Sequence record: PZ379074.1
Source: a phage
Direction: 5' to 3' (one strand)
Length of the DNA: 64,000 nucleotides
Made by a program: the position numbers and the translations under genes. The stretch's first letter is position 1, and each line of letters opens with the position of its first letter. Shown here piece after piece: positions 517 through 59,478 of the stretch. Under the pieces are notes generated by a model. The model had not been told where the DNA came from. It searched no databases and saw only the letters and a list, made by a program, of their open reading frames with translations.

Positions 517-2187
517 ATGTCAATTGAACATGACAATCTTCCAGAGGATACAGGTGATGAATTTGGTGCAATCTTTGACGAAATTCAAGACGCTGGTGTT
601 TCAGAAGAGATGCAAGCGGCAGAGCAGCAAGGCACCAGAGCTAAAATCAGCCTCCAGCATAAGGCTGTTGAGAAAGATGCAGAGCGCATGGAATGCTACG
701 GTGAAGAAGACTTGGTTGAAAGAGCACGCTTGCTCGCCTCACTTCAGGTAATCAAGTTCCCTCACTACAAGCCTACCAAAGATGACTTCGTTCTACAGGC
801 AGACCGGACGAGTGACATGAACCGTTATGCGGTTTTCGACGCGTTGTTTGATAAGGGAAGTGGCATTGTTCCATTCCCTCACAAAGATACTTTTCGTGGG
901 CGCTTAGTCGACCATCGCGGCGAAACATTCACTGACCGTACCTTGGAAGTCACAGAGATAGTTGCCGCTGTCGACGCAGCAGGACTGTCTAACCCAAACT
1001 CACGTCAGGTCGCTCAATCCTATAAGGAATGGGCCATGCGTTATCAGCGCGACGACCTGATGGACTTCTTCTACAAGAAGCTTCCTGAATGGGACGGTAC
1101 TGCGCGCATTGAAAAATACCTTATCGAGCTATTCCGACCGTTCGATACAGAGTTAAACCGACAAATCGGTGTGTATTTTTGGCTATCGCTCTACAACCGC
1201 CTGACAAACCCTGGATGTCAAGCGCCAATCTCCATCGCGCTCATCGGCGGCCAGAACGCAGGGAAGAGTTATTTTAGTAAGCTACTTTGCGAAGCTATTA
1301 TGAACGACCGCCACGCAACACCGATTCCGTTGAACTTGGCCGCGCAGAACTTCAACCCGTTCTTGCGAGCTATTACGGGTCGCTCAATTATCGCGAACGT
1401 TGGCGAGATGACAGGCTTTAAAAAGGCTGACATCGAAAACATGAAAGCATTCCTGACTAAGACGGAAGATGACCTGGACTTCAAATTTGAAGATACGCAG
1501 GTGAAACCACGCCAGTGGATTGCTATCATGGACGGCAACGAATACGCAGGCATGCAGCGTGACGACACAGGCAACCGTCGTGTGTACCCTATCTTTGTTG
1601 GCCAACTCGCTGACAAGGACGGGCAACCGAACTGGTCCAAAGACTTCCAAGCTGACCTTTCCACTTTGAAAGAAGACGTTTGGCAGTTGATGGCTGAGTG
1701 TGCTGCGTGGATGGAGAAGCACGGTGAAGCAGGTTACAACGCGTTTGTTGGTGAAACATCTCGCATGCTTACTGAGTTCAGTAAAAACGAAATGGAACGC
1801 GCTCGCGGCGTTATCCGTGATGAGATGGTGGACAACGACCTTGTTGAAGTCGTCATCACCGCGCCTTATGACCGACATCACAGCGGACGCTGGCACATCA
1901 CCAGTGGTGCTATTGCTATGGGATTCAGAGCGAAATGCGGCAAGTCGCCTTTCTCTCGTACCCTTGCGCCGCACATGTCAAAGCTTGGCTTTGAGCCTGC
2001 TACCTATCGCAACCAGCGCGGTTACTTTACGCCGCTGATTAAGAATGAAGCAGGGGAATACATTTCTGATTTGATGACTATCTTAGCGTATCTTATCCGC
2101 GACGAGTCTGACCCTGAAGATATTGAATTCTTGAAGAAGGTTATTGAACGCAAACGTTCTTTAGGAAGAGATAAGGATGAATTCTGA
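517..2187 (+). CDS. P-loop NTPase, primase/helicase-like (VirE/D5-type)
   Basis: 556 aa; Walker A-like GGQNAGKS; strong RBS AGGAGG 7 nt upstream of ATG; family assignment from motif only. Confidence 0.6.
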   Translation: MSIEHDNLPEDTGDEFGAIFDEIQDAGVSEEMQAAEQQGTRAKISLQHKAVEKDAERMECYGEEDLVERARLLASLQVIKFPHYKPTKDDFVLQADRTSDMNRYAVFDALFDKGSGIVPFPHKDTFRGRLVDHRGETFTDRTLEVTEIVAAVDAAGLSNPNSRQVAQSYKEWAMRYQRDDLMDFFYKKLPEWDGTARIEKYLIELFRPFDTELNRQIGVYFWLSLYNRLTNPGCQAPISIALIGGQNAGKSYFSKLLCEAIMNDRHATPIPLNLAAQNFNPFLRAITGRSIIANVGEMTGFKKADIENMKAFLTKTEDDLDFKFEDTQVKPRQWIAIMDGNEYAGMQRDDTGNRRVYPIFVGQLADKDGQPNWSKDFQADLSTLKEDVWQLMAECAAWMEKHGEAGYNAFVGETSRMLTEFSKNEMERARGVIRDEMVDNDLVEVVITAPYDRHHSGRWHITSGAIAMGFRAKCGKSPFSRTLAPHMSKLGFEPATYRNQRGYFTPLIKNEAGEYISDLMTILAYLIRDESDPEDIEFLKKVIERKRSLGRDKDEF

Positions 2188-3555: not shown

Positions 3556-3777
3556 ATGAGCAAGAAAACTCTTAAGGCTGGGGACCGCATCCGTTGGATG
3601 TCAGGACAGAATATGCGCGCAGGCACCATCCTTGAGCTGGATCAATACCTTACTGATTCGCGCGGTCGCAATCACTATCGCGTTCGAATCGATACGGTAA
3701 AAGAAGATGACAAGTCACTGGTTGGTGAAGTAGTCATCGTTACTCCACGTCAAATTAAGGCGGCTTGTGAAGCATGA
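3556..3777 (+). CDS. hypothetical protein (73 aa)
   Basis: Start moved to internal ATG 3556 just after upstream stop (track ORF 3391..3777). Confidence 0.45.
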   Translation: MSKKTLKAGDRIRWMSGQNMRAGTILELDQYLTDSRGRNHYRVRIDTVKEDDKSLVGEVVIVTPRQIKAACEA

Positions 3778-4984: not shown

Positions 4985-5313
4985 TGACCCGTGATCAGAT
5001 ACTCGCCGCGCATGAGCGTGGATTGATAAAGGAAGTTTGGAAGAAGGCCAATGCCTTTGCTGATTCTTATTACTTCTTAAAGAAGTGCATAAAAGAAAAT
5101 GCAAGAATGGGCAACACGGTATTGACTTTCAATCTTCTATCTTATGGTGATAAGCTTAATGCAATATGCGCTTGTCGTCTCACCAGTATGAAATTTGAGA
5201 GATTGGGTGACGGAGAGTTGACCATCTATCGATTCTCCCACAGGACGGGAGATACAAAGATAACAAGGACGCGTGACCAGATAGAGATTGACCTGCTCCA
5301 CTATGTAAAATGA
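4984..5313 (+). CDS. hypothetical protein (109 aa)
   Basis: ATGA overlap; followed by terminator-like hairpin. Confidence 0.5.
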   Translation: MTRDQILAAHERGLIKEVWKKANAFADSYYFLKKCIKENARMGNTVLTFNLLSYGDKLNAICACRLTSMKFERLGDGELTIYRFSHRTGDTKITRTRDQIEIDLLHYVK

Positions 5314-10104: not shown

Positions 10105-10439
10105 TGAATAAACGAACACCGTTTACGTGTTTTGAAGAATGGAATGTGTACAATGGGTCGCTTTATGCGGCCTTTTGTTGTTTGGGTCGTGTTTTGCGAT
10201 GGAATAATTATGAGGTTGTGTTTTATTTATTAATTGTGCGGAAATATTTAGAAATATATTTCATAGGTCGTGTCTATTGGTCCGTGGTGTTTGTTAGGAC
10301 TTATCTATGGATTGAAATTTTAGTGTCGTGAAACGTGGTGTTTGAACACATTTGATACGCGTAAAATACGGCTAAAAATTAAGCGTATCATGGCTGCAGG
10401 CCGCGCCGTTACTGAGTTCCTATTTTCAAAAGTGGTACA

Positions 10440-10800
10440 CCCTTACGGATGATACGTCATGGTTTTTTATCCGTATCAGTGTACAGCCCTTGCCGCGCCT
10501 GGCCTGTACATTAATCTTACGGATGATACGGATAAAACTGGGCACCATTATATATATAATTTGAAAAATTAATTAACTCCATTTTAAAAACATTTAAATT
10601 ATTTTTTTCATATCCTCATACTTATGTTAATTTATATATTTAACGTATCATCCGTAAGATATAAGTAAAAACAAAGACTTGCGGCAATACGGATGATACG
10701 TTATGATACGCTTCGACCAGCCAGCAGCGGCTAAGTCATTGATTTGCATAACAAGCAGCGAAAGGGATGGATTTCTTTTATCCGTATCAAACAGTACACC
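10440..10800. repeat. iteron-like repeat cluster, 13-bp motif TACGGATGATACG / CGTATCATCCGTA, flanking an AT-rich tract
   Basis: Full copies at 10444-10456, 10518-10530, 10688-10700 (+) and 10644-10656 (rc), plus partial copies; AT-rich tract 10545-10640. Confidence 0.7.
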
Positions 10801-10939
10801 ACGCACCACGGTCCGTTATCCATTCAGCACTATGATTTGTGTACGTTTATAGCCATAATGAACATCAATCTGCACTTGAATATAATGTCCATCCATTGTA
10901 TAATTCACACTATTAATTTGCACTATGGGATTTTGCACT

Positions 10940-11413
10940 ATGAGTCAAGATTATGTAGCGATGCCTGAAGACTTTGAAGACCCGCGATTTGCAGAGCACA
11001 ATCAGGCTTTATTCGATGAGTTCATTGACCTTGTTATTCAGGGCCATGACATGCGCGCAGCTTTTGCACTAGTATTTGGAATGGAAGTTGCAACGGATAA
11101 CTACACTGGCCAGCGAATCCTTTGCGCGCAACGCAATCCATACTACAAGATGCGCTTCAAAAAGCGTATGGAAGAGATGCCACTCAAGGATTTGTGGAGC
11201 GTAAAAGGTGCAATTCACAATTTGGTCAAGCTTGTGCGTGATCCAGAAGTCGCGGCGTCAGCCAAACTTAATGCTATTCGTGAACTGAATATCATCTACG
11301 GCATCACGATGATTGATGAAAACGGCAATAGTAAAATGGGCCGTTCCATGGACGATTTCTACAAGGATTTTGGAGAGGCGGCCAAAGAAGGTGAGCAATT
11401 CTCCCGCCACTAG
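10940..11413 (+). CDS. hypothetical protein (157 aa); speculative small-terminase/DNA-binding candidate
   Basis: ORF flanked on both sides by the ATTTGCACTAT array; alternative start ATG 10925; no motif recognised. Confidence 0.5.
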   Translation: MSQDYVAMPEDFEDPRFAEHNQALFDEFIDLVIQGHDMRAAFALVFGMEVATDNYTGQRILCAQRNPYYKMRFKKRMEEMPLKDLWSVKGAIHNLVKLVRDPEVAASAKLNAIRELNIIYGITMIDENGNSKMGRSMDDFYKDFGEAAKEGEQFSRH

Positions 11414-11432
11414 CCAATTTGCACTATAAAAC

Positions 11433-11466
11433 GGCCCTAGAACACATTTTCTCCACTTCTAGGGCC
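11433..11466 (+). other. hairpin downstream of 10940..11413 (weak terminator candidate)
   Basis: GGCCCTAGAA ... TTCTAGGGCC 10-bp inverted repeat with 14-nt loop; no U-tract. Confidence 0.3.
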
Positions 11467-11841
11467 ATCGGTAATACGACGGGGAAGGTTACAACCATAA
11501 ACGCGTTATAAAGTGTATTATTATAAGTCATCTTTTAGTCACTTTCCGTAACAATTTACGACCTTCAACCGTCCAATCGAACGACTCCACCAGCAGATTT
11601 GCACTATAACCTAAGACTACCCGACCTTTCTCGTTATCGACCCGCCAGCAAGTCTCGAATAGCATCTTATTTGCACTATTAACTATCGCCGCAACTCGCG
11701 TAGGATAAGCGCAATTTGCACTATGGTCATAAAGGGATAAGGTGCGACCACTTCCGATGGACAACGTAGCGATGAGAATGAGCGTATTCATAAGCCACCA
11801 ATTTGCACTATGAAAAGCGACCCCGAAGGGCCGCCATTCTA

Positions 11842-12468
11842 TTAGATAATCTGGAAGGTGTAGGACTTGTTGCCGAACTCAAAGTTCAAGCGCCCAGCTT
11901 CCTTAAGCTTCATGCGGAAGCGAATGTGTTTGCTATCCGGCAAGCCCAGCGCGGCGAACGCTACGCGGACCGATTTGAACTCGCCTACACCCTCGACCAT
12001 GACACCGTTACGGGTGAGACGCTTTTGCGCCACTTCCTTATTATCCCAGCTTTTTGCAATACCTTCGCTATTCGAACGGCGATGGGAAGGAGTTCCATTT
12101 TGCACTACGCAATTTGCACTATCGTTTAAACCGCTCTTAACGAAGGCTTCATATTCTTCGTCGGTCATCGCGTCGAGTTCTTCCTGGGTCGGCTCAGCCT
12201 TTTTAACGACCGCACGCGCCTTATGCGTTTTTACATCGCTGGACACTTCCTCGCGCGGCTTCGCGTCGGGAATGGGCGATTCGTTGGACGGCTCATCGAG
12301 CGCGTTTAAGGACTCGATTAACGCGATTACGCGAGTCTCGGCGGTCCGGCGGTCCGCGAATTTCTTAATCGGCTTCGAACCGGAATTTGCATTATAAAAT
12401 GCAACGAGGTCGGCGGTCTTAGTTGCGATAACGTCGCCGCTAGTAGAAAAGCGATTTAAGCTAACCAT
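11842..12468 (-). CDS. hypothetical protein (208 aa); member of TTATTATG-start module
   Basis: Same RBS context AGGAGTTTATTATGG as 12549..12863; 3' third overlaps the ATTTGCACTAT repeats. Confidence 0.45.
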   Translation of the reverse strand: MVSLNRFSTSGDVIATKTADLVAFYNANSGSKPIKKFADRRTAETRVIALIESLNALDEPSNESPIPDAKPREEVSSDVKTHKARAVVKKAEPTQEELDAMTDEEYEAFVKSGLNDSANCVVQNGTPSHRRSNSEGIAKSWDNKEVAQKRLTRNGVMVEGVGEFKSVRVAFAALGLPDSKHIRFRMKLKEAGRLNFEFGNKSYTFQII

Positions 12469-12548
12469 AATAAACTCCTATTTGTTAGGGCGCTAGGCGC
12501 GAAAGAATTTTATTAAAGCGCCGCGCACGACGCTCTAAAAATCCTCTC

Positions 12549-12863
12549 TTACTCTTCGTCGTCTTCGATTAATTCGAGGGCGAAGGCGTAAGCTTTGCTA
12601 TCGTAATTAACTAAAACGGCGAGTTCGAACTCGTTAATAAACGCCGTTTTACCGCATAAATTTAATTCCGCATCGACTTCGAAGAATCCGTTTTCGTCGC
12701 GCTCTAAGCGAGAAGCAGCGAGTTGCTCGATTACCGTCGCGTCGTTAATTTCTTCGCCTAAGCGAACGCCGGAGAATTTAGCGAGAATTTCGCCGTAAGT
12801 AAGCGTAACGCCCTGGACTTCGGCGGTTGCGTTTTCGAGGGTAAAGCGGGTAACGATAGCCAT
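12549..12863 (-). CDS. small highly acidic protein (104 aa)
   Basis: Preceded by sigma70-like promoter, conserved 5'UTR hairpin and AGGAGTTTATTATG start context; ends ...LELIEDDEE. Confidence 0.6.
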   Translation of the reverse strand: MAIVTRFTLENATAEVQGVTLTYGEILAKFSGVRLGEEINDATVIEQLAASRLERDENGFFEVDAELNLCGKTAFINEFELAVLVNYDSKAYAFALELIEDDEE

Positions 12864-12931
12864 AATAAACTCCTAGTTGGGAGAGGCGTTAACGACCTAT
12901 TCGTTAACTCATCCCGTCCCGATATGAGTAC

Positions 12932-12959
12932 ATTATAATATAGTGTAGAAAAAAGTAAA
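12932..12959 (-). promoter_or_regulatory. sigma70-like promoter (TTTACT-16-TATAAT) for 12863<-12549
   Basis: Reverse complement reads cTTTACT(16 nt)TATAAT; whole cassette near-identical to 13403-13430. Confidence 0.55.
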
Positions 12960-13003
12960 GCACTTTTTCGATAAAAATGCGATAAATTATTTTATCTTTT
13001 TTC

Positions 13004-13031
13004 TTTACTTCTTCGTACACTCGCGTATACT
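13004..13031 (+). promoter_or_regulatory. sigma70-like promoter (TTTACT-16-TATACT) for 13088..13390
   Basis: cTTTACTtcttcgtacactcgcgTATACT, back-to-back with divergent promoter at 12932-12959. Confidence 0.55.
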
Positions 13032-13087
13032 TGTTTATATCGAGACGGGCGATGTCCCTTTCTTCTACTAGCATCGGGAGCTTTATT

Positions 13088-13390
13088 ATGACTACTTTAA
13101 TCTCTTCCATCCTTACTTACGACGAAGACCGCTTAACCGTTCGCTCTCTTATCGCCGCCGTTAACGCGGAACTAGAATCTAGCGCCATTAAGGTCCGCGC
13201 GGTCGCCTTCATCGGCCTTTCCTTCGACGATATGAAGTATGCCGAACGTAGCGCTATCCGCTTCGCGAAGACCGACGACGAAGCCGTTACCCTTATCGAG
13301 ACGGTTACGCCGCGCGACGAAGCGTTAATTATCGTCGAGTATATCGACGTAGAAGGCGATAAGGCTTATAAATATTTTATCGCAGAATAA
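13088..13390 (+). CDS. small acidic protein (100 aa)
   Basis: Start set at ATG 13088 within GGGAGCTTTATTATG context (track ORF 13031..13390 starts earlier). Confidence 0.55.
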   Translation: MTTLISSILTYDEDRLTVRSLIAAVNAELESSAIKVRAVAFIGLSFDDMKYAERSAIRFAKTDDEAVTLIETVTPRDEALIIVEYIDVEGDKAYKYFIAE

Positions 13391-13402
13391 CGAAAAAGTG
13401 CT

Positions 13403-13430
13403 TTACTTCTTCGTACACTAAGACTATAAT
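13403..13430 (+). promoter_or_regulatory. sigma70-like promoter (TTTACT-16-TATAAT) for 13498..13788
   Basis: gtgcTTTACTtcttcgtacactaagacTATAATg; followed by hairpin GGTAGCGA-atagg-TCGCTACC and AGGAGATTATTATG. Confidence 0.55.
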
Positions 13431-13497
13431 GTTTTATATCGAGAGGGGATGAGGTAGCGAATAGGTCGCTACCCTCCCGACCAACTAGGAGATTATT

Positions 13498-13788
13498 ATG
13501 ATTACTTTAGCCGCTATCCGTAACGCTCGCGCCGAAACTTCCGAAAACTCTAACGTATTTGGCGAAAAACTTAAAAACGTTTATCTCTTTAACGTAGATG
13601 CGACTATCGAGGAGCTTCATAGTCCTATCGATTTTAGCGAATTTACGGAACTCGAAGAGGAAGATATTTCTACTTTCCGCGTTACTATCGAAGGCAAGGT
13701 TTATTTTGCTACGGAGTTCGGCGGCGAATATCTCGCGGTATCCGAAGGCGAAGGCCGTTACTCTTTCTTTAAAATCGTCTCCTTATAA
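13498..13788 (+). CDS. small acidic protein (96 aa)
   Basis: Own promoter cassette; followed by terminator. Confidence 0.6.
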   Translation: MITLAAIRNARAETSENSNVFGEKLKNVYLFNVDATIEELHSPIDFSEFTELEEEDISTFRVTIEGKVYFATEFGGEYLAVSEGEGRYSFFKIVSL

Positions 13789-13807
13789 TACCCTTCCGTT
13801 ACTAATA

Positions 13808-13833
13808 GGCCGCGCTTAGTCGCGGCTTTTCTT
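13808..13833 (+). terminator. rho-independent terminator
   Basis: GCCGCG-cttagt-CGCGGC followed by TTTTCTT, 20 nt after stop of 13498..13788. Confidence 0.55.
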
Positions 13834-14096
13834 CGTCCCTATCCCGATGCGCGTCTACGCGAAAACTCCTTTATCCTTCCCTTCGTCGTCGCATAATCTT
13901 CTTCGAGATGCTCCTTAGTTCGCATAACAGGTATTACGTTAAATGGAGAACATCGCGTAAGTCCTTGTTTTATATAGACACCTATATCGGACCGTTAGGG
14001 CGGGTCGCGTAAGTCGTTGTTTTATAAAGGCGCAAAACTTTCCCTTCGTTCCGAACTAAAACGAGGAATATGCCGACCCTTCGTCCGAAAATAGTA

Positions 14097-14470
14097 TGCA
14101 TGCGAAATTACATGCATCTAGAATAATCCCCACCGATATTATCCTACACGCAATCATTCGCTTTCGAATCATTATGCTTCATATTATTATGCATCGAATC
14201 ATTCTCTTTCGAATTGTAACGCTGGAAACTGTAACGGCGATTGATTATTGCGTTCGTGTGGTTTTTAGGGCATGGGTCTTTTGGTGCGTTTTGCTACTTG
14301 ATGAAATTTGCGGTACACTAATCAAAATACGACACATTTGGTCCACTAACTTTTCAAAGAAAAAGTCCTAGACAGTACCGTACTATTTTGCACCCACAGG
14401 AAATTTGCAGTACACTCCTGCGCGGCAGGCAAAATAAAGGGCCGCACTAAGCGACCCACTAAGCGACCCA
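14097..14470. repeat. non-coding repeat-rich region (short direct and inverted repeats)
   Basis: ATGCATG...CATGCAT inverted repeat near 14097; AATCATTC(G/T)CTTTCGAAT direct repeats near 14149 and 14201; (G/C)AGTACACT motifs near 14303 and 14400; tandem CACTAAGCGACCCA x2 at about 14445-14472. Confidence 0.5.
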
Positions 14471-19815: not shown

Positions 19816-21276
19816 ATGAATAAAATATTAACACATAATTGGAAAGTCATGTACCAGTTGAATCCTGCTTTAAGAGAAGTCTGGAAGACGAAGGCGCGAT
19901 ACAAAGTTATATACGGCGGTCGTGCATCTTCCAAATCGCATGATGCCGCTGGTTTTGCTATTTATTTGGCGGCAAACTTTAAATTAAAATTCCTTTGCGT
20001 TCGACAATTCCAGAACAAGATTTCTGAATCAGTATATACGCTATTAAAAGACAAAATAGAAATTTCTGATTTCAAAGACGAGTTCAACTTATTAAAGAAC
20101 TCTATTGAACACAAAAGAACAAAATCTGAATTTTTATTTTACGGTATCGCACGCAACGTTGACGAAATCAAATCAACAGAAGGTGTTGATGTTCTTTGGC
20201 TTGAAGAAGCGCATGCACTGACTGAAGAGCAATGGGACATTATTGAGCCGACAATTCGTAAGGAAGGGTCCGAAATATGGATCATATTTAACCCTGATGA
20301 AGAGGCTGATTTCGTCTACCAGAACTTTGTCATGCGACCGCCGAAAAATGCCATCGTTAAGAAGATTAACTGGCAGGACAATCCATTCTTGTCGCAAACA
20401 ATGCTGGATGTTATCGCTGGCATGTATGAGCGCGACCCGAAAAAGGCAGAACACGTTTATGGCGGAGTGCCGAAGACAGGCGGCGATAAGTCGGTCATCA
20501 ACCGTGCATTCGTCAAAGCCGCGCTAAACCTCCACAAACACCCTACGCTGGGATGGAGCTTGTCAGGGTCTAACCGTATAGGCTTCGACGTGGCGGACGA
20601 CGGCGACGACTTAAACGCCACAGCATTTGTCACAGGCAACGTATTACGTGGCATCAAGACATGGGAAGGTCTGGAAGATGAATTGCTTAAGTCCGCAAGC
20701 GGAGTTTGGAAAGACGCATTGACATTCGGCGCGTCAATTACCTATGACGCCATCGGTGTCGGTGCATTTGCTGGTTCAAAATTTGATGAGCTCAATGAGT
20801 ATGCAATACATGAAAATCCAACATTCCCAAGAATCGAATTTAATGCGTTCAACGCGCAAGGTGCTGTTGATGATCCTGATGACGTTTTCCTTGAGTTACC
20901 ACACGTTGAAATACTCAATAAAGACCATTTCGCAAACATAAAAGCGCAAAAATGGACTGAGATTGCCGAACGATTCAGAAAGACATATGAGTATGCGACA
21001 GGGCAAGCCGCATATCCGACCGATGAGTTGATTTCCATCGACACAGACGGCATTCCAGAACTTGGGATTCCTGCTTGGTCTGCGGAAGAAATTGAGACGT
21101 TTCTTTTTGAGATGTCAGCGCCGCGCAAAGACACGTCTGTTCTTGGTAAGTTCAAAGTTGAATCGAAAAAGGATATGGCAAAGCGTGGAGTTAAATCGCC
21201 TAACAAAGCGGACGCCGCAATCATGGCATTGATGAAACCAATTGTTGCAGCATCCGGCTTCTTCTCTAACCTTTAA
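19816..21276 (+). CDS. terL: terminase large subunit
   Basis: 486 aa; N-terminal ATPase region (GGRASSKSHDAAG; VLWLEEAH); first gene of head module, followed by portal. Confidence 0.75.
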   Translation: MNKILTHNWKVMYQLNPALREVWKTKARYKVIYGGRASSKSHDAAGFAIYLAANFKLKFLCVRQFQNKISESVYTLLKDKIEISDFKDEFNLLKNSIEHKRTKSEFLFYGIARNVDEIKSTEGVDVLWLEEAHALTEEQWDIIEPTIRKEGSEIWIIFNPDEEADFVYQNFVMRPPKNAIVKKINWQDNPFLSQTMLDVIAGMYERDPKKAEHVYGGVPKTGGDKSVINRAFVKAALNLHKHPTLGWSLSGSNRIGFDVADDGDDLNATAFVTGNVLRGIKTWEGLEDELLKSASGVWKDALTFGASITYDAIGVGAFAGSKFDELNEYAIHENPTFPRIEFNAFNAQGAVDDPDDVFLELPHVEILNKDHFANIKAQKWTEIAERFRKTYEYATGQAAYPTDELISIDTDGIPELGIPAWSAEEIETFLFEMSAPRKDTSVLGKFKVESKKDMAKRGVKSPNKADAAIMALMKPIVAASGFFSNL

Positions 21277-21932: not shown

Positions 21933-22094
21933 TTCAATCTCCTTTCGTTTGGTTAACTAAAATATAACTCAAAATGATACAAAAGCAAAATATTTTATGA
22001 ACTATTTATGATCACCATACATATCATTTGCTTACAAACACATGAATATTTATAATATAGATTGATTCCCTTTCACTGTCAGGTGGCGTTAACA

Positions 22095-24470
22095 ATGAAA
22101 ATTCTTGGCATAAAACTCTGGGAGAAGACGCAACCAGAAGCCGAACCAGCGGAGATGCCGCCAGGCGACCCATTGGCACCGTTTGAACGCCTTGAAAGGC
22201 GCGGCAGCGGTCAACGCTGGGAAAAGACTGAAAGCAATCGACCGACCTTTAAAACGGTTGATGACTTCCCTTTATATGAGCCTGATATTAATGGCGATGG
22301 TGTTGCAATCATAAAAGGTCGTTCAGTCGATTCCGCAACAGTATCCAAAAAGGTTATGGATAATGCCTTAAAGAACATCAGTTCAGAAGGGCAAGTCAAC
22401 CCATACACAGTACCTATTCAACTTCAAAACTGGTATTTGTCACAGTCATTCATCGGCTATCAAGCTTGTGCCATCATCGCACAGCATTGGCTGGTGAACA
22501 AGGCGTGTTCCATGGTAGGTCGCGATGCGGTCCGTAAAGGTTGGGAAGTCAAATCCAGTTCTGAGTCAGAATTGTCAGTACAGGCAAGCGAACGCCTAAA
22601 GCAAATTGATAAAGAATTTAATATCAAAGAGCACTTAGTTGAAGCCGAACGATTCAAAAATATTTTTGGTATCCGCGTCATCATATTTGATGTGCGTAGC
22701 GATGACCCAGAATATTACAGCAAGCCTTTTAACATTGATGGTGTGACAAAGGGGTCTTATAAGGGAATCATTCAGGTTGACCCTTATTGGATGATGCCGT
22801 TTCTGACGTCTGAAAACACAGCAGACCCTGCATCACAGCACTTCTATGACCCAGAATATTGGGTAATCAGCGGACAACGTTATCATCGCAGCCACCTCAT
22901 AATCTTGCGCAACGATGAGCCAGCTGATATTCTCAAGCCGACTTATATTTACGGCGGCATTCCTCTGACTCAGCAGATTTATGAACGCATCTATGCCGCT
23001 GAACGTACCGCTAACGAAGCGCCATTGCTGGCGATGTCCAAGCGTACAACCACGCTGCGGACCGACGTTGACAAGGCGATTGCCAATGAGCGGTCTTTTG
23101 CAGAACGTCTGATGATGTGGATCAAGTACCGCGACAACTATGCAGTTAAAGTGCTTGGCCAAAAAGAAGAGATGGACCAGTTTGACATCAACTTGTCAGA
23201 CTTCGACAGCATCATCATGAACCAGTACCAGCTTGTGGCCGCAATCGCAAAAGTTCCGTCGACCAAACTGCTTGGGACTTCGCCAAAAGGCTTTAACGCC
23301 ACTGGTGAATTCGAGATGGTCAGCTATCACGAAGAGTTGGAAACGTGCCAGCAGCATGACCTGACAAAAATTCTCGACCGCCATTACAAAATCCTTCTCA
23401 AATCAGAAGGGGTGGATGTCGATGTTAAGGTTGCATGGGAACCAGTTGGCTCACTTACTGCTACTCAACTTGCAGAAATCAATGATAAGCGAGCCAACAC
23501 TGGCAAAACTCTTATTGATGCTGGCGTCATTTCTCCTGATGAAGAGCGCGACCGCATCAAAGACGACAAAAACAGCGGCTACAACCGTCTGCCGGAAGAC
23601 GCAGCAGAAGAAACCCCAGGGATGTCTCCAGAGAATATGGCATTGCTTGGCAAGTCTGCTGGTGAAGTCCTGCAAGGTAAGGCCGATATTGAACAGGCGA
23701 AAGCTGATGTCGTTAAGATGGGCGGCCAGTTCTACAGTGAAACAGGCATTATGCCAGAGGGTGCCGCGCGTGGTGAGTTGGCGGAAAACCCTGACAAAGC
23801 GCCTGTCGAAATCAACATGGACGATACCGATGATGAATCAAGCCATCAGGTTGGTGTCCTAACGCAGTTGAAAGAAGGGCTGGAGGGTATTGCGGATTAC
23901 TACCTGAAAGAAGGTCAGGATGTGGATTTTGACCCTCAAAAAGATTCACGGTCGGTGCAACCGTCTACCCTTCCAAGCGTTAAAGGACACGTCGTCAACT
24001 TACGCCACAACGTGGGTAAAATGGACGCAGCATCATTACCTAAGATGAAGTTGCACGGAATGATTCTTGGCATTGAGAATCCGCGAAACAGCATTCGTAG
24101 AGGAAACAGCCTTGACGGTGAATGGGCCGTGAAGATGCCGCACCACTACGGATTCATCAAGGGCACCAAGGGCGCAGACGGTGATGAAGTCGACTGCTTT
24201 GTGGGTCCAAATCTGAAGTCGCCGAAAGTCTTTATCGTGAACCAAAACGATAACTACTCTGGCGAGTTTGATGAACACAAGTGTATGCTTGGATTCGATT
24301 CAGCAGAAGAAGCGAAAGAAGCTTATCAAGCATCATTTGGTAACGGTTGGAACGGATTCGACTCAATCCACGAATTAGATGTGAACTCATTCAAGGAGTG
24401 GTTGAAGGGTGATTGCTCTCAAGCATACGGAGCACTCAATAATCCTACTAATTCACCGAAGCAAGGTTGA
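22095..24470 (+). CDS. portal protein (long form with C-terminal extension)
   Basis: About 790 aa; position right after terL and before MuF-like gene; start set at ATG 22095 with GGTGG RBS. Confidence 0.6.
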   Translation: MKILGIKLWEKTQPEAEPAEMPPGDPLAPFERLERRGSGQRWEKTESNRPTFKTVDDFPLYEPDINGDGVAIIKGRSVDSATVSKKVMDNALKNISSEGQVNPYTVPIQLQNWYLSQSFIGYQACAIIAQHWLVNKACSMVGRDAVRKGWEVKSSSESELSVQASERLKQIDKEFNIKEHLVEAERFKNIFGIRVIIFDVRSDDPEYYSKPFNIDGVTKGSYKGIIQVDPYWMMPFLTSENTADPASQHFYDPEYWVISGQRYHRSHLIILRNDEPADILKPTYIYGGIPLTQQIYERIYAAERTANEAPLLAMSKRTTTLRTDVDKAIANERSFAERLMMWIKYRDNYAVKVLGQKEEMDQFDINLSDFDSIIMNQYQLVAAIAKVPSTKLLGTSPKGFNATGEFEMVSYHEELETCQQHDLTKILDRHYKILLKSEGVDVDVKVAWEPVGSLTATQLAEINDKRANTGKTLIDAGVISPDEERDRIKDDKNSGYNRLPEDAAEETPGMSPENMALLGKSAGEVLQGKADIEQAKADVVKMGGQFYSETGIMPEGAARGELAENPDKAPVEINMDDTDDESSHQVGVLTQLKEGLEGIADYYLKEGQDVDFDPQKDSRSVQPSTLPSVKGHVVNLRHNVGKMDAASLPKMKLHGMILGIENPRNSIRRGNSLDGEWAVKMPHHYGFIKGTKGADGDEVDCFVGPNLKSPKVFIVNQNDNYSGEFDEHKCMLGFDSAEEAKEAYQASFGNGWNGFDSIHELDVNSFKEWLKGDCSQAYGALNNPTNSPKQG

Positions 24471-25323
24471 TATGGCTTTTAAAGCTTCGAAAAAACGTGA
24501 ACGCCGCTCGCCCGATAGAGTCGGGCGCGGCAGTCCGATAATCCCATCAAACGCTATTGCAATGGCCTACCGTCGTGAGATGAAAGGTCTTTGCTATGCG
24601 ATGATTGATGACTATCAGGCAGGAATTTCAGAGTGGCTTGAAAAGAAGCAGGTGCAGAAGTTCTTTGCGCAAGACTCTGCTGATTCAACATTCCAAACTC
24701 TTATGAAACGTCTGCAGCTGAAATGGGCAAAGGCGTTTGCTCGTGTTGGGTCGAAGATTGCCGCTGATTTTATCAAGTCGGTTGAAAAGGGTGCTACTTC
24801 TGCTACATTCGCCAGCCTTAAGTCCGCAGGCATAGAAGCGCCAAAGGCCACATACAACAAATTCGTTGAGAACACTCTTAGAACAAGCGAGACGTTTAAC
24901 ACGACTCTAGTGACTAAGGTCGGCGAGGATATTCACAACAGAGTGTACGAAGCAGTCATGCTTTCGCTGACTTCGCCCGACCCAGCCCAGCAAGGCACGT
25001 CAGGCATTCAGGCGGCGCTGCGAAACGTAAAACACTTCTCTGCAAAGAGAGTCGACTTAATCGCTAAAGACCAGACAAGCAAATTGTATTGCGTTCTAAG
25101 CGATGAAAGGATGCGCCAGAATGGAGTTGAAGAATTTGAATGGGCGCACTCAGGAGCAGGAAAGGAGCCGCGAATCTCTCATGAACATGTCGACGGAATG
25201 AGATTCAAACTTGATGACAAGCGTCTATGGGAAGTGGGCGGAGAGTTGAAGTTCAAAAAGGGTGACATCGGTCCTCCTGGATGGGCGATACACTGCAAGT
25301 GCAGAAAAATACCAATCATTTGA
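24471..25323 (+). CDS. head morphogenesis protein, Mu F-like (minor head protein)
   Basis: Position after portal; C-terminal HEHVDG...CKC motif typical of Mu F/SPP1 gp7-type proteins; start set at ATG 24471. Confidence 0.55.
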
Positions 25324-25330
25324 GGTCATT

Positions 25331-26251
25331 ATGACGATACCAATCAGCACGTTTCCTCTATCTGGACAAACGCCAGTATTGCCTGCTGTATATGCTAACG
25401 GTTTGGCGATTGTTTCGGAATTCACATCCGATAAAAACCTGATTGTTCCATTGAGTCCGCCATTGGCGTCTGGATACAATTCAGTTGGCCAGTTCTTTAT
25501 GATCGGTAATGATGGCGATTCTACCAGCAAGCCGAATCTGACACTTTCAGTTCCCAAAATGAACATAACAGACGTGCAGACTGGTTTAACTGCATCTACG
25601 ATCACCATCGCTTTTGGAGAAGCAGTGATTATAGGCATGGAGTCTGGAGGGTCCAAGAATGCTGTCGCCGTTAAGGTAGTCAAATCCAGCAGCAACCAAT
25701 ACACACTACCAGCGGCAACGGCTTCTGTTCTTGGCGGCGTCAAAATAGGAAGTGGCATAAGCGTTGCAGGTGACGGTACAATTAGTGTGACTCAATACTC
25801 ATTACCGATTGCATCAGCATCAACCTTGGGTGGCATAAAGGTAGGAACGACACTATCAATTGATGGTTCTGGCGTCCTTAATGCTGCTGCAAGCACTGTG
25901 CAGAACGCAAGCAACAGCGTAAGCAATCCTCCGACAACTCTGGTGAATCTGGCAGCCTTAAACCTGCCTGCAGGGAAATGGCTTGTGACAGCAAGTCAGT
26001 TGACTGTCGCGACAGCAGGAGTTCAAGCGAATACCGGAATTACAGTCAAACTGTCAACAAGTAATTCAGATATTACGGATGATGCATTTACAATGTCAGC
26101 TGGCATTCGGGCTGCAGGTCGTTTCGGCGGCAATATCCCAACAAAGATAATTACTCTTGCCGCGCCTGGCAACGTGTATCTAAACTATCAATGCACAGAC
26201 GCATTGACATCTACCGTTTACGGACAGATCACCGCAATTAAGTTGAACTAA
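25331..26251 (+). CDS. fiber-like repeat protein (306 aa)
   Basis: Internal tandem repeats ASVLGGVKIGSGISVAGDGTISV / ASTLGGIKVGTTLSIDGSGVLNA; Ser/Thr/Gly/Ala-rich. Confidence 0.5.
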   Translation: MTIPISTFPLSGQTPVLPAVYANGLAIVSEFTSDKNLIVPLSPPLASGYNSVGQFFMIGNDGDSTSKPNLTLSVPKMNITDVQTGLTASTITIAFGEAVIIGMESGGSKNAVAVKVVKSSSNQYTLPAATASVLGGVKIGSGISVAGDGTISVTQYSLPIASASTLGGIKVGTTLSIDGSGVLNAAASTVQNASNSVSNPPTTLVNLAALNLPAGKWLVTASQLTVATAGVQANTGITVKLSTSNSDITDDAFTMSAGIRAAGRFGGNIPTKIITLAAPGNVYLNYQCTDALTSTVYGQITAIKLN

Positions 26252-26399: not shown

Positions 26400-26439
26400 A
26401 TCGCCTGGCAATGGATTGCCGCAGGATTTTACGCGTATA

Positions 26440-26705
26440 ATGACGTATCATCCGTATCAAGTAAGTAGTTGTTTTCAAAAGAATCTTACGGATGATACGG
26501 ATGATACGCGTTGCCGCGATACTTTATAAGAGTTTATAAAAAAATAAAATTATATATCTAATTTAATTTTATTTTTTTATAAACTCTTATATATGAAAAG
26601 TATCCGTATCATCCGTATCATCCGTAGCACACCAGTGATAGCGCGGCTTATACACCGATACGGATAAAAATACACCTCATTTTATCCGTATCATCCGTAT
26701 CACAC
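26440..26705. repeat. iteron-like repeat cluster (TACGGATGATACG / CGTATCATCCGTA, tandem 9-mers) flanking a palindromic AT-rich element
   Basis: Copies at about 26444-26456, 26487-26507 (tandem), 26605-26627 (tandem), 26686-26700; same motif as 10440-10800. Confidence 0.7.
26526..26590. repeat. perfect 26-bp inverted repeat with 13-bp spacer, AT-rich
   Basis: ATAAGAGTTTATAAAAAAATAAAATT (26526-26551) exactly complementary to AATTTTATTTTTTTATAAACTCTTAT (26565-26590). Confidence 0.85.
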
Positions 26706-26811
26706 TAATTAAGGCGCGGCTATATCGGTTGTTATACATATTCAAACCATAATTATTGTTTGCCTAAGTTTTTTTCATTAGATATAATACACAATACTTA
26801 TTTGAGGGTGG

Positions 26812-28230
26812 ATGCGAATGCAAACGGCACGCGAAATTGACAAAAATGGATTCTTGACGATTGTGGGTTGTCCCATTTCGTCATTTGGCATTTTTGATTA
26901 TTCTGCAGGTCAGGTTGGACTTGATGGTGATCCGAATCGCATCGTAAAAGTTTATCGCCCAGAGTCAGCGGTGAAAGACCCCGAAGCGATAGATTCATTC
27001 AAAAATATCCCTTTCATCGACAATCACGAAATGCTTTCTGGATTCGAAGGTGATGAGGATAACACAGCACCCGAAGAGTATGGCGTTGATGGCGTTCTAA
27101 CTGGCAATGTTTATTATGACAAGCCATGGATGCGCGGCGACCTTAAAGTTTTTAGCCGTCGTCTGAAGAAAGCCATCGATTCTGGAAAGGTTGACTTGTC
27201 TTTGGGCTATGACTGTGAATTCATCATACAGTCTGGAGAGTTTGACGGGCAGCCGTATGAAGTGGTACAGACAACTCTTCGCGGCAACCACATTGCTCTC
27301 GTGGACGTTGGTCGAGTACCAGGTGCACGGGTGCTGGATGGTCGTTGCTTTGACCATCTTTGTTTGACGACTGTAACACCATCCAACGAGGATTTAGACA
27401 TGCCAAAACCGTTAAAAGGTAAAGCGCGTGATAATGCTGTTGAACAGCTGAAATCACTGATCCCTGCGCTCGAACAATTTCTGAATGAAGAGAGCACCGA
27501 AGCTGCTCATCAGGACGAAGTTGAAGTGAAAGCAGAAGAGAAGGATTCAACCGAAGAACGTGAAGAAGTGATGGTTGATCCAGAAGTTAAAGCAGAAGCT
27601 GAAGAGACTCCAGAAGGTGAAGAGAAGTTTGAAGTTGAAACTGAATCTCACGCTGGCGGCGAGCTTCCGCAACTGATCAGCCAAATCGAAGCACTTATTG
27701 CAAAACTGAAAGGTGGCGCGGTAGGTGATGAAGAAGAAGTTGAAGCCGAAGTCAAAGACGAAGAAGTTGAAGTCAAGGCTGAAGATGTATCACCTTGCGA
27801 CAAAGCTGAAGATGTGGTTAGCGGCCTGCAAAACAGCAACGTAAAGGGGGCTTCGGTCGAAAAAGATGACAAACCGACAAAAGCGGCGAAAGCGTCGCCA
27901 GGTCCAGCAAAAGGGGAACACTCAATGGCATCTGATTCAGCAGTTGCTGCTTTCTACGCTGATTCTGCTCGTAAGAATAGCCTCTACCAGCGCCTGTCTA
28001 AAGTTGTTGGTGCCTTTGATCATGCAACTATGGACTCCAAGTCCGTAGCGAAATATGGCGCTAAAAAGTTAGGCTTGAAGTGCGTTGATGGTGCTGAGTT
28101 TGACGTGGTGGATAATTATCTGCGCGGCGTTGAACACGGTCAAAAACAGCGTGTAGTCGCAAAACAAAAGGCCGCTGCGGATTCTGCAGCAACTGACGAA
28201 GCATTTGAAGCTTGGTTGAAAGGGGAATAA
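26812..28230 (+). CDS. prohead protease/scaffolding-like protein (acidic coiled-coil middle region)
   Basis: 472 aa; Glu/Lys/Val-rich acidic repeat region; position between portal/MuF and capsid. Confidence 0.5.
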   Translation: MRMQTAREIDKNGFLTIVGCPISSFGIFDYSAGQVGLDGDPNRIVKVYRPESAVKDPEAIDSFKNIPFIDNHEMLSGFEGDEDNTAPEEYGVDGVLTGNVYYDKPWMRGDLKVFSRRLKKAIDSGKVDLSLGYDCEFIIQSGEFDGQPYEVVQTTLRGNHIALVDVGRVPGARVLDGRCFDHLCLTTVTPSNEDLDMPKPLKGKARDNAVEQLKSLIPALEQFLNEESTEAAHQDEVEVKAEEKDSTEEREEVMVDPEVKAEAEETPEGEEKFEVETESHAGGELPQLISQIEALIAKLKGGAVGDEEEVEAEVKDEEVEVKAEDVSPCDKAEDVVSGLQNSNVKGASVEKDDKPTKAAKASPGPAKGEHSMASDSAVAAFYADSARKNSLYQRLSKVVGAFDHATMDSKSVAKYGAKKLGLKCVDGAEFDVVDNYLRGVEHGQKQRVVAKQKAAADSAATDEAFEAWLKGE

Positions 28231-59307: not shown

Positions 59308-59478
59308 TTATTGATTAATTACTGTGTTGCCTTCGATGGAATAAGTCTCAATGGAACCGACGCGCTCGTGGTTAATCTTTGCGTTTTCGATTCTTATTAC
59401 TTCAAATCCAACACCTTCTTGATCAATCTTCACTTCTGCTACGTCGCCAATCACTTCTACAACAACTTTGATAGTCAT
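59308..59478 (-). CDS. hypothetical small protein (56 aa)
   Basis: Not in track (<60 aa); starts 3 nt after SDR stop. Confidence 0.35.
   Translation of the reverse strand: MTIKVVVEVIGDVAEVKIDQEGVGFEVIRIENAKINHERVGSIETYSIEGNTVINQ

Follow-up and report, generated by a model that had tools for sequence, protein, structure and literature searches.

Packaging sites in which terminase-binding repeats flank the cut are known from phages P1 (pac) and lambda (cosB). The packaging site of SPP1 has its end between flanking repeat arrays (pacL, pacC and pacR), directly 5′ of the small terminase gene (PMC6316719), and T4 has two related 'synapsis' sites, situated kilobases apart in genes 16 and 19 and bracketing the large terminase gene, for which binding by a single packaging protein has been proposed (PMC9958956). 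The generation of exact kilobase-long terminal repeats by phages was called unknown in the paper describing phage Ro157lw, which cites Casjens and Gilcrease (PMC6454146).

Origins of the SaPI Rep type contain 6–12 iterons directly after rep, with an AT-rich centre and at least two oppositely pointing iterons on each side (Qiao et al., 2022, PMC9371898). The iterons are penta- or hexanucleotides (5–6 bp), which are read by the C-terminal DNA-binding (winged-helix) domain of the helicase; the AT-rich centre melts, and one helicase hexamer is loaded on each side of it (PMC9371898). Two distant and similar origins, oriL and oriR, each with repeats and an AT-rich unwinding region, are present in SPP1, where one initiator binds both and oriR interrupts the head-gene module (PMC6316719).

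We compared with these systems two intergenic clusters of short repeats from a Wifcevirus, an E. coli myophage, within a window of 64 kb (the whole stretch of DNA analysed, 64,000 nt of record PZ379074.1). As in a SaPI-type origin, a central AT-rich region is flanked in both clusters by short repeats of opposite direction; unlike it, the host is a virulent 68 kb phage and not a satellite, the repeat unit has 9 bp (it appears in 13-mers, of which some form overlapping tandems) instead of 5–6 bp, and there are two copies per genome, one of which carries the virion end. The two distant copies recall SPP1 oriL and oriR, but the SPP1 repeats are direct, its initiator, the unrelated gp38, depends on a loader as well as on a DnaB-type helicase, and its pac is a separate locus, whereas here one copy is the genome end. 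An end located between repeats and 5′ of a small terminase gene recalls SPP1 pac and the other packaging sites of this type; nevertheless, these are single-copy and have no 100 bp AT-rich dyad at their centre, whereas this phage has an exact 3.7 kb terminal repeat and a conserved uncut second copy. Finally, the T4 sites are short coding-sequence homologies, still putative, without AT core or dyad, in a phage without sequence-specific ends. On balance, we consider it probable that the clusters are two Rep-type origins, one of them being also the genome-end and packaging site.

Two repeat clusters around AT-rich cores

The repeat unit is the 9-mer GATACGGAT, with a period of 9 in tandem copies, often seen as the 13-mer TACGGATGATACG. 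A first-pass annotation had described at least four copies of the 13-mer, with several partial ones, around an AT-rich tract, as well as the same motif family in a second, distant region. Both observations hold: there are four exact copies in 10444–10700 (cluster 1, 10.35–10.81 kb) and six in 26444–26699 (cluster 2), and cluster 1 includes partial copies TTTTATCCGTATCA (10465 and 10776), TGATACGGATAAAA (10524) and TGATACGC (10353, 10384 on the minus strand, and 10704). The parts of cluster 1 are as follows.

10353–10391, no strand: outer degenerate repeats TGATACGCGTAAAAT and inverted AAGCGTATCA (inverted-repeat pairs I5, I6, I17 and I19; TGATACG matches)
10444–10456, plus strand: outer left 13-mer, exact copy, perfect in this phage only
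10465–10478, minus strand: partial repeat TTTTATCCGTATCA (repeat search and inverted-repeat pairs)
10475–10515, no strand: short hairpin TGTACAG...CTGTACA with CTTGCCGCGCC in the loop (pair I15)
10518–10537, plus strand: inner left repeat TACGGATGATACGGATAAAA (invariant columns in alignment A1)
10538–10643, no strand: AT-rich core, presumed unwinding region, which holds the genome end
10644–10656, minus strand: inner right 13-mer, inverted with respect to 10518, exact copy with a C/T polymorphism among relatives
10688–10711, plus strand: outer right repeat and degenerate unit TACGGATGATACGTTATGATACGC, part of a 68 nt module
10776–10789, minus strand: partial repeat TTTTATCCGTATCA, right edge of the cluster (repeat search and inverted-repeat pairs)
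10859–10904, plus strand: two overlapping sigma-70-like promoters 5′ of the small terminase gene (consensus match only)

The core of cluster 1 is 83% AT, versus 54% for the window, and is its most AT-rich 100 bp stretch. To its left lie exact 13-mers at 10444(+) and 10518(+) and the partial copy at 10465(−), and to its right those at 10644(−) and 10688(+) and the partial copy at 10776(−). The cluster folds as a long dyad (z −5.7), with an AT palindrome in the core centred about 10585.5. The two promoter candidates, TGAACA-16-TATAAT and TTGAAT-17-TATAAT, each match 10 of 12 consensus positions.

Conservation differs along the cluster. The outer left copy at 10444 reads TACGTCATGATACG in eight of the ten relatives in alignment A1, whereas the inner left repeat is retained in all ten, even where the sequence leftward has been replaced. 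The left flank of Bas99 is unrelated DNA right up to this repeat, which is itself kept, and we count its survival, as seen in the alignment, as a probable sign of selection. Relatives hardly differ in the half of the cluster that falls within the terminal repeat.

The second cluster and the gene that follows it are arranged thus.

26444–26702, no strand: cluster 2, second copy of the element (repeats around an AT core)
26444–26459(−), 26487–26508(+), 26602–26626(−), 26657–26669(+), 26680–26702(−): repeats of cluster 2
26812–28230, plus strand: head maturation protease gene (annotation of Bas99, JG024 and WTB)

The repeats to the left of this core are exact 13-mers at 26444(−), 26487(+) and 26496(+); those to the right are exact copies at 26605(−), 26614(−) and 26687(−) and a further repeat at 26657(+). 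The core (26523–26601) is 91% AT and the second most AT-rich 100 bp stretch of the window. It contains palindrome arms (26525–26555 and 26561–26591), and the cluster forms a folded dyad of 144 nt (−51 kcal/mol, z −16). The perfect palindrome is private to this phage, its left arm having been recently overwritten here, so that cruciform formation is not a conserved requirement. The cluster itself was found in 29 of 29 GenBank Wifcevirus records, none of which, among those listed, opens at it. The head protease gene lies directly 3′, preceded by a promoter-like TTGCCT-17-TATAAT at 26760–26788.

Both clusters are thus dyad-symmetric, with inverted repeats around the two most AT-rich stretches of the window, and have in common a 68 nt composite module with the same facing relative to the core (blastn of 10644–10711 against the reverse complement of 26433–26499, 78% identity, E 1.7e-7); their inner sequences are different.

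The first-pass annotation had also stated that the motif is found nowhere in coding sequence, and had named a random distribution over the genome as what would refute its proposal. The former is correct for the core, since all ten copies of GATACGGAT in the 64 kb, as well as the five of GATACGGATAAAA, are within the two clusters. A scan of the window for the 13-mer with up to 2 mismatches gave a clustered distribution, with 12 matches versus 0.98 expected, a number reached in 0 of 100 shuffles; only two 2-mismatch matches, at 12009 and 26074, fall outside the clusters, which is chance level. The core is restricted to the same two places in the complete relative Bas99, so there is no third cluster. 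We also scanned IMG/VR for TTACGGATGATACG in search of distant relatives, and discarded this approach: nearly all of the ca. 120 loci were single chance matches, and clustered cores occurred in Wifcevirus contigs only. Rfam and tRNA scans over the whole window gave no match, indicating that the clusters are not a known RNA.

The left end of the virion DNA and the terminal repeat

Three features locate the chromosome end with respect to cluster 1.

10575–10585, plus strand: invariant word AACTCC/ATTTT, with the virion DNA left end between 10580 and 10581 (starts of relatives' records)
10581–14281, no strand: direct terminal repeat of the virion DNA, 3701 bp (placed by homology to relatives)
10940–11413, plus strand: small terminase gene (terS), first gene inside the terminal repeat (homology to PDB 7UXE)

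The independently sequenced records of WFC, Ro157lw, SP13 and Mansfield all start at the ATTTT that corresponds to position 10581, which in the right-hand repeat copy is preceded by ...TTAATTAACTCC. The ends of Ro157lw and Mansfield were called with PhageTerm, and the end of the phage studied here is placed from the records of these relatives. The word AACTCC/ATTTT is unchanged across 10 phages; it occurs just once in the window, and cluster 2 lacks it. The left end is situated ca. 6 bp from the dyad centre of cluster 1 and 360 bp 5′ of the small terminase gene, whose product (TerS) matched PDB 7UXE, the TerS of Pseudomonas phage E217, in a phmmer search (E 6.1e-34, residues 7–152; 41% identity) and is annotated as terminase small subunit in Mansfield. 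Cluster 1 thus shares with pac- or cos-type sites the presence of a virion DNA end inside the site, as located in four relatives, and the adjoining small terminase gene; such sites are, however, single in the genome, whereas here there is a second full copy at 26444–26702.

The right end of the terminal repeat, ...GGGCATGGGTCTTT (14268–14281), is common to Ro157lw, SP13 and the annotated repeat of Mansfield (position 3673), and the WFC record ends 81 bp further, at 14362. Repeats of 3533 bp (Ro157lw), 3673 bp (Mansfield) and 3899 bp (SP13) have the same start and end sequences. Judging from these records, both boundaries are at a fixed sequence and not at a fixed length, which is the T5-like class in PhageTerm terms. 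We asked whether headful packaging from one pac cut, which leaves the left end sharp and the right end fuzzy, might produce an apparent repeat, and rejected this because in three phages repeats of 3533–3899 bp end at the same homologous sequence.

Pfam and PHROGs searches of the genes in the terminal repeat gave no DNA-binding domain. A 208 aa neighbor of terS (11842–12468, minus strand) was considered as a specificity factor and dropped. This product is conserved (phrog_4730) and 36% identical to JG024 gp80. The gene is absent at that position in SMP and WTB, the single-sequence AlphaFold model had too low a pLDDT (40) for use, and the homologs listed were all at least 98% identical.

A candidate initiator helicase and the element in other genera

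A gene near the start of the window could encode the initiator.

517–2187, plus strand: candidate initiator, VapE-like / D5-type SF3 helicase (PF05272; 7PDS homology)

Its product contains Pfam domain PF05272 (E 1.6e-28, residues 189–407), and its closest solved structure is 7PDS, the SaPI1 Rep1-DNA complex (E 4e-11). These matches make it a homolog of SaPI Rep, the family of self-loading initiator helicases; orthologs carry the label 'DNA primase' in relatives. The C-terminal 157 residues showed no detectable sequence match to solved winged-helix domains. Two characteristics of the Rep origins described by Qiao et al. (2022) thus accompany the oppositely pointing repeats of both clusters, namely a Rep-family SF3 (VapE-like) ATPase encoded in the same genome and an AT-rich region near the centre of each array. 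In contrast to those origins, ca. 8.2 kb of small ORFs separate the end of rep (2187) from the first repeat (10353) here. Cumulative GC skew turned only at changes of gene orientation (ca. 12, 21 and 48.4 kb) and is therefore uninformative on the origin. Likewise, Rep and TerS are both 99% conserved within the genus, so co-variation cannot tell them apart.

An equivalent element occurs in Pseudomonas, Serratia and Burkholderia relatives just 3′ of the helicase gene, and each of these has a second copy 5′ of the head protease gene, which is the syntenic anchor of this copy in all four genera. The gene order primase, rep, element is found in JG024, WTB and SMP. JG024 contains the RepB-type primase gene gp74, the Rep ortholog gp76 (45% identity, E 4e-152), which ends at 59007, then the element and terS; in WTB the Rep ortholog likewise comes immediately before the element, and in SMP a single small ORF lies between the two. 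The two copies of JG024 are 77% identical over ca. 330 columns, with blocks present only in the two elements. Those of SMP share a 49 nt block (E 1e-10), the shared blocks taking in the −10 region, and those of WTB a 98 nt block (E 8e-19), the sole non-self match in 26 kb. The positions are syntenic across the four genera despite diverged sequences, and in all of them the element adjoins terS with equally tight linkage. The repeat words are lineage-specific, that of JG024, GGTAATTTGG, being unrelated to GATACGGAT, which is what co-evolution of a phage-encoded DNA-binding protein with its sites would produce.

The putative pac of the Pbunavirus JG024 was placed at position 59,376 (Ipoutcha et al., 2024, PMC10913387). 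We found this position to be inside the homologous element, between the Rep ortholog and terS and ca. 20 bp from the centre of the AT-core dyad. JG024 is nonetheless reported as circularly permuted, with headful packaging, whereas the Wifcevirus relatives have fixed ends at both repeat boundaries.

From the two clusters, the first-pass annotation had proposed one trans-acting factor acting at two sites, be it a replication initiator, a transcription regulator or a partition/packaging protein. The shared repeats, geometry and 68 nt module, and the same two-copy design in three other genera, argue for a common factor. The initiator option gains a candidate, the SaPI-Rep-like helicase, whose gene directly precedes the putative origin in relatives. 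The packaging option was partly right, in that the 'repeat-region boundary' on which cluster 1 was placed is the left end of the virion DNA, just 5′ of terS; which factor binds there is something that we infer.

Origin, packaging site or operator

According to the reading that we favor, the GATACGGAT repeats, flanking a core of ca. 100 bp in opposite directions, would form a replication-origin-type element. The helicase encoded at 517–2187 would be the factor acting at both clusters; it would bind the repeats, and replication would start at the element. Cluster 1 would be, in addition to an origin-like site, the site where terminase, or replication itself, makes the left genome end. That the packaged chromosome starts in the AT core of cluster 1 ties the architecture of an origin to the making of chromosome ends. 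Against this, a genome end at the centre of the element and the tight linkage to terS are the pattern of a terminase recognition site. We initially favored recognition by the small terminase, and this explanation was demoted with the finding of the Rep homolog and of the published description of Rep origins; we now see it as possible, with the balance of evidence against it. The repeats would then be recognition sites of the small terminase or of the terminase holoenzyme, and cluster 1 a classical packaging site, where a TerS ring binds both sides and the large subunit cuts the AT-rich centre, as for SPP1 pacL/pacC/pacR. Cluster 2 would be an uncut pac-like twin, which might pair with cluster 1 as in the synapsis idea for T4 gp16 or, alternatively, would let terminase regulate the transcription of head genes. 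The end next to the dyad centre in four relatives, the proximity of terS in four genera, the JG024 pac position within the homologous element and the near invariance of the half inside the terminal repeat all agree with this, as does the absence from cluster 2 of the cut-site word AACTCCATTTT, which would explain why that copy stays uncut. There are also parallels in SPP1, where TerS binds on either side of the cut and acts as a repressor of its own promoter, and in T4, with putative pac sites in genes 16 and 19. Yet the TerS of E217, 41% identical to that encoded here, had no appreciable DNA binding in vitro (review PMC9611059), a conserved uncut second pac copy is without established precedent, and the layout agrees in detail with what is described for Rep origins, with a Rep homolog encoded directly upstream in relatives. 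The two explanations are not exclusive, because there could be terminase recognition elsewhere within the element.

It is unlikely that the repeats are operator or activator sites of a phage regulator co-controlling two late operons, one with terS and the other with the head protease, scaffold and capsid genes, the genome end being nearby merely because pac sites usually adjoin terS. Each cluster does lie between the end of a plus-strand unit and the sigma-70-like promoter of the next gene, the inclusion of the −10 region in the shared blocks of SMP would fit such control, and promoters of Pbunavirus 14-1 seem to need phage factors (PMC10914365). However, the promoters lie 100–400 bp downstream of the repeats, which are grouped about the AT core instead, the late promoters of terL and portal are without repeat copies, no regulator candidate was found among the neighboring genes by Pfam or PHROGs, and the end at the dyad centre and the JG024 pac inside the element would be two coincidences. 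Still far less credible is that the clusters are non-functional remnants, whether a repeat arisen by chance or a small mobile element with inverted repeats present in two copies. Terminal inverted repeats, the double occurrence and the recently overwritten left arm of the cluster 2 palindrome might point this way; against it stand the syntenic positions in four genera with diverged sequences, the differing inner sequences of the two copies, the retention of the inner repeat across flank replacement, and the lack of further copies in the genome and of clusters in unrelated viral contigs.

Starting from the origin reading, we propose, speculatively and with low confidence, that a replication origin defines the chromosome ends in these phages. 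The AT core of copy 1, bound by Rep and melted, would be the substrate giving the sharp left end: DNA synthesis would start there, or terminase would cut a fork or bubble. If copy 1 fired again on concatemers, it would re-replicate the next 3.7 kb, thereby duplicating the terminal repeat. The same element would be the 'pac' start in headful-packaging Pbunavirus relatives, which would fit the reported absence of DNA binding by the small terminase in vitro. By analogy with what was proposed for SPP1 oriR, the second copy would act as a fork barrier or, otherwise, do the bulk of replication. The left repeat boundary is at the centre of an origin-type dyad element beside the small terminase gene, and close relatives with homologous terminase, helicase and element package by headful instead; fixed-end phages and headful relatives therefore make a natural pair, offering defined sites for mutation, for asking how the start of replication is coupled to the cutting of ends and the duplication of the repeat.

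The analysis also assigns likely functions to features that are mostly unlabelled or mislabelled in the ca. 360 GenBank phage records with this small terminase family: two long intergenic gaps, a gene with the label 'DNA primase' whose product is a Rep-like helicase, and a 'hypothetical protein' corresponding to the small terminase. These records include Pbunaviruses used in phage therapy and genome rebooting, for the design of which the origin and the ends matter.

The short hairpin at 10475–10515 of cluster 1 had a DNA fold of −6.5 kcal/mol (z −2.2), and an analogous hairpin, with loop ACTGCCGCG, is present in the JG024 element.

Two dyad-symmetric repeat elements around AT-rich cores

Two repeat elements, cluster 1 (ca. 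10.35–10.81 kb) and cluster 2 (26444–26702), are taken here to be two copies of a putative Rep-type origin element, the first also being where the left end of the genome is formed. The window shows 90–97 % identity to Wifcevirus phages (WFC, TH32, EC150, Mansfield and Bas98-101), which are myophages of E. coli and Shigella with genomes of ca. 68 kb. Cluster 1 has exact copies of the 13-mer TACGGATGATACG at 10444 (+), 10518 (+), 10644 (-) and 10688 (+), and cluster 2 has six more at 26444–26699. The first-pass annotation had described at least four copies, with partial ones, around an AT-rich tract; this was borne out, as the exact 13-mers are ringed by partial copies and the AT content of 10538–10643 is 83 %, versus a window average of 54 %. 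Of all 100 bp stretches in the window, the cores of the two clusters are the two richest in AT. The genome-wide motif scan agreed as well: allowing up to two mismatches, TACGGATGATACG gave 12 matches versus 0.98 expected, a number reached in none of 100 shuffles, and both the 9-mer core GATACGGAT (10 of 10 copies in 64 kb) and GATACGGATAAAA (5 of 5) were confined to the two clusters. No third cluster was found in the window, and in one complete relative the core 9-mer is restricted to the same two places.

Cluster 1 follows the last of a long series of small + strand early ORFs and precedes ORF 10940–11413. Cluster 2 occupies a long gap between a small ORF, situated after a head-fibre-like gene, and the head maturation protease gene. 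The gene map was transferred from the Bas99 annotation, with these landmarks:

19816–21276, large terminase gene
22062–24470, portal gene
26812–28230, head maturation protease

Each cluster is dyad-symmetric about its own AT core. The arms of cluster 1 (10507–10530 and 10644–10667) are 88 % complementary, with their centre at ca. 10587, and its AT palindrome is centered at ca. 10585.5; in cluster 2, AT-rich arms of 31 nt are enclosed by perfectly inverted double repeats of 22 nt (26487–26508 and 26605–26626). Single-strand folding produced a long hairpin for the regions of both cluster 1 (-22.5 kcal/mol, z -5.7) and cluster 2 (-51 kcal/mol, z -16). The clusters also share a 68 nt module (10644–10711 versus the reverse complement of 26433–26499, 78 % identity), formed by the inner repeat, a spacer of ca. 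30 nt and the outer inverted repeat, which lies next to the AT core and reads outward in both. Considering both clusters, GCCGC is on the + strand left of the center and on the - strand right of it in 8 of 8 cases, and TGCCGC is found exactly at -95 and +95 about position 10586. The 15-mer CTTGCCGCGCCTGGC, in the hairpin loop of cluster 1 (10489–10503), is repeated exactly at 26156–26170, within the coding sequence of the head-fibre-like ORF (25262–26251) and ca. 300 bp upstream of cluster 2; this ORF also contains a copy of the 13-mer with two mismatches, at 26074.

Cluster 2 was found in all 29 Wifcevirus records of GenBank (93–98 % identity), and its repeats did not vary across a 10-phage alignment. 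The perfect palindrome with 31 nt arms (26525–26591) is private to the window. In nine relatives the left arm differs (TATAGGAATTCAAATAAATTAATTTAAAATT), and a perfect cruciform potential is therefore not a conserved requirement. In the window phage a copy of the right arm seems to have replaced the left one, for instance through template switching or repair templated by the hairpin. The sequence of cluster 1 right of the core is nearly invariant among aligned relatives, and the copy farthest to the left, at 10444, has the perfect sequence in the window phage alone. Phage Bas99 carries unrelated DNA left of cluster 1, ending at the inner left repeat, and keeps this repeat, the core and the right half; the retention of inner repeat and core beside a replaced left flank argues for selection on both.

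The left genome end and the terminal repeat

The terminal repeat of WFC is reported to be ca. 3.7 kb (Korf et al., PMC6563267). We placed the left end at 10580/10581, because the WFC record opens with ATTTTAAAAACATTT and the right-hand copy of the repeat has TTAATTAACTCC just before that sequence. The records of Ro157lw (USA), SP13 and Mansfield start at the same base as WFC; PhageTerm was used to call the ends of Ro157lw (repeat of 3533 bp; PMC6454146) and Mansfield (3673 bp; PMC6753283). The sequence spanning the left end, AACTCCATTTT, is invariant in 10 phages, within a variable AT core; it is single-copy in the window and was not found in cluster 2. At the other side, Ro157lw, SP13 and Mansfield all finish at ...GGGCATGGGTCTTT, corresponding to window position 14281. 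Since this boundary is identical in three phages despite repeat lengths of 3533–3899 bp, both ends are sequence-specific and not headful. Placed from the relatives, the repeat is:

10581–14281, direct terminal repeat of 3701 bp, with its left boundary inside cluster 1, ca. 6 bp from the dyad center

The WFC GenBank record ends at 14362, 81 bp past the position shared by the other three phages, which could be due to a difference in method or to real heterogeneity of the right end. The right boundary (14281, viewed in the interval 13950–14420) is situated within a non-coding stretch of ca. 700 bp with four families of direct repeats. The motif RGTACACY has four copies in 64 kb, all on the + strand, two flanking cluster 1 (10434 and 10793) and two just beyond the right boundary (14312 and 14409); this pattern, spotted post hoc, could signal where the right end is cut. 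The terminal repeats of F13 (5047–5256, labeled "transcriptional regulator"), Ro157lw, SP13 and Eco4M-7 contain an extra gene for 69 aa, absent from the window and WFC. A comparison of window 10300–10517 with Bas99 10500–10760 locates the flank-replacement junction exactly at the inner left repeat, and early-gene modules appear to have recombined at this putative origin/terminus boundary.

Paired elements in other phage genera

ORF 10940–11413 (terS), 360 bp from the left end, is clearly homologous to the small terminase of solved structure from Pseudomonas phage E217 (7UXE, E 6.1e-34) and is annotated as such in Mansfield. Its family includes 359 phage records, ca. 300 of them from Pbunavirus, and also phages of Serratia, Burkholderia, Xanthomonas, Pantoea and Aeromonas. 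Most Wifcevirus and Pbunavirus records label it "hypothetical protein", and its PHROG family is of "unknown function". A 208 aa protein of unknown function (phrog_4730; 11842–12468, - strand) adjoins terS on the opposite strand, as it also does in the Pbunavirus JG024 (gp80, 36 % identity), and is not beside terS in Serratia phage SMP or Burkholderia phage WTB.

The genome of JG024 is reported to be circularly permuted, with a pac site proposed at 59,376 from long-read starts and a pac fragment (Ipoutcha et al., PMC10913387). This position is at the edge of an AT-rich tract, and the terS ortholog gp79 (41 % identity) lies ca. 600 bp downstream of it. A gap of 512 bp upstream of the JG024 head protease gene is a paralog of the pac region, with 77 % identity in ca. 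330 columns, and within this genome AAGCCTACTGCCGCG, TTCCTAATTTCCGGTTT and TCCCGTCAAGTT are confined to these two elements. In the gap copy, the 15-mer among these blocks stands in inverted orientation on either side of the core, and the dyad center of the pac-region copy is, as estimated from sequence, ca. 20 bp from the mapped pac position. JG024 has its own repeat word, GGTAATTTGG. Likewise, the region upstream of terS and the gap upstream of the protease share a 49 nt block (86 % identity, E 1e-10) plus colinear blocks in SMP, the 49 nt block being the sole distant match in 24 kb, and a 98 nt block in WTB (82 % identity, E 8e-19), the sole non-self match in 26 kb.

With paralogous pairs in Wifcevirus, JG024, SMP and WTB, the two-copy design is kept in four lineages with different repeat words, as would be expected if the phages encoded a DNA-binding protein that co-evolves with the sites it binds. 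The motif GCGGCW, oriented, appears on the gene-proximal side of the cores 4 times in Wifcevirus, 4 in SMP and 3 in WTB versus 0.6–0.8 expected (in total, 11 versus ca. 2); including its inverse on the other side, 0 of 18 copies are wrongly oriented. In the window it is found at 10681, 10727, 26643 and 26716, its inverted copies being to the left of the cores, and it may be the site for a conserved second factor.

Rep and TerS as candidate binding proteins

TerS is a candidate to act at the repeats, given that terS adjoins the element, that the genome end is located in it and that there are precedents: SPP1 TerS binds pacL and pacR, flanking the cut at pacC, and represses its own promoters (PMC6316719), and putative small-terminase sites exist in genes 16 and 19 of T4 (PMC9958956). 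However, no appreciable binding of the E217 TerS to DNA was seen in vitro (PMC9611059). The second candidate is the Rep-like helicase (517–2187, 556 aa), which contains a VapE-like SF3 helicase domain (E 1.6e-28) and whose best solved relative is the SaPI1 Rep1-DNA complex (7PDS, E 4e-11). It is labeled "DNA primase" in relatives, and the database labels of both this ORF and 10940–11413 are misleading. Rep proteins act both as initiator and as helicase and recognize short iterons through a C-terminal winged helix; their origin, directly downstream of rep, has 6–12 iterons and a central AT-rich region, with at least two oppositely pointing iterons per side, and a hexamer is loaded at either side, two in all (Qiao et al., PMC9371898). 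Clusters 1 and 2 match this geometry, although in the window phage rep and cluster 1 lie ca. 8.2 kb apart, with small ORFs between them, and the repeat unit is 9 bp, instead of 5–6 bp. JG024 has, in this order, gp74 (RepB-type primase), gp75, gp76 (the Rep ortholog; 45 % identity, E 4e-152), the element and terS; in WTB (E 6e-72) the Rep ortholog is likewise the gene directly before the element, and in SMP (E 3e-91) it nearly is. SPP1 has two origins of similar organization, one interrupting the head-gene module (PMC6316719), a precedent for the two copies in the window phage.

The helicase C-terminus had no detectable match to any solved winged helix, and the GC skew of the window was uninformative for an origin. 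Rep and TerS are each 99 % conserved within Wifcevirus, so co-variation does not separate them. Both readings are compatible; the element has several motif classes and could hold sites for both proteins. For these reasons, together with the distance from rep and the 9 bp unit, we describe the element as one that would work like a Rep-type origin and do not assign it to the SaPI family. Singly, iteron origins, pac sites and terminal repeats are all well known; what is new is their combination, a putative duplicated Rep-type origin architecture in virulent myophages with one core marking the chromosome end. In the part of the Wifcevirus and Pbunavirus literature consulted we found no mention of the repeats, the paralogous second copy or a genome end at an origin-type dyad. 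Many contigs of ca. 68 kb with proteins identical to those of the window phage occur in assemblies labeled Escherichia coli or Salmonella (NCBI, ENA and Logan), and therefore Wifcevirus genomes seem often to be carried along when bacteria are sequenced.
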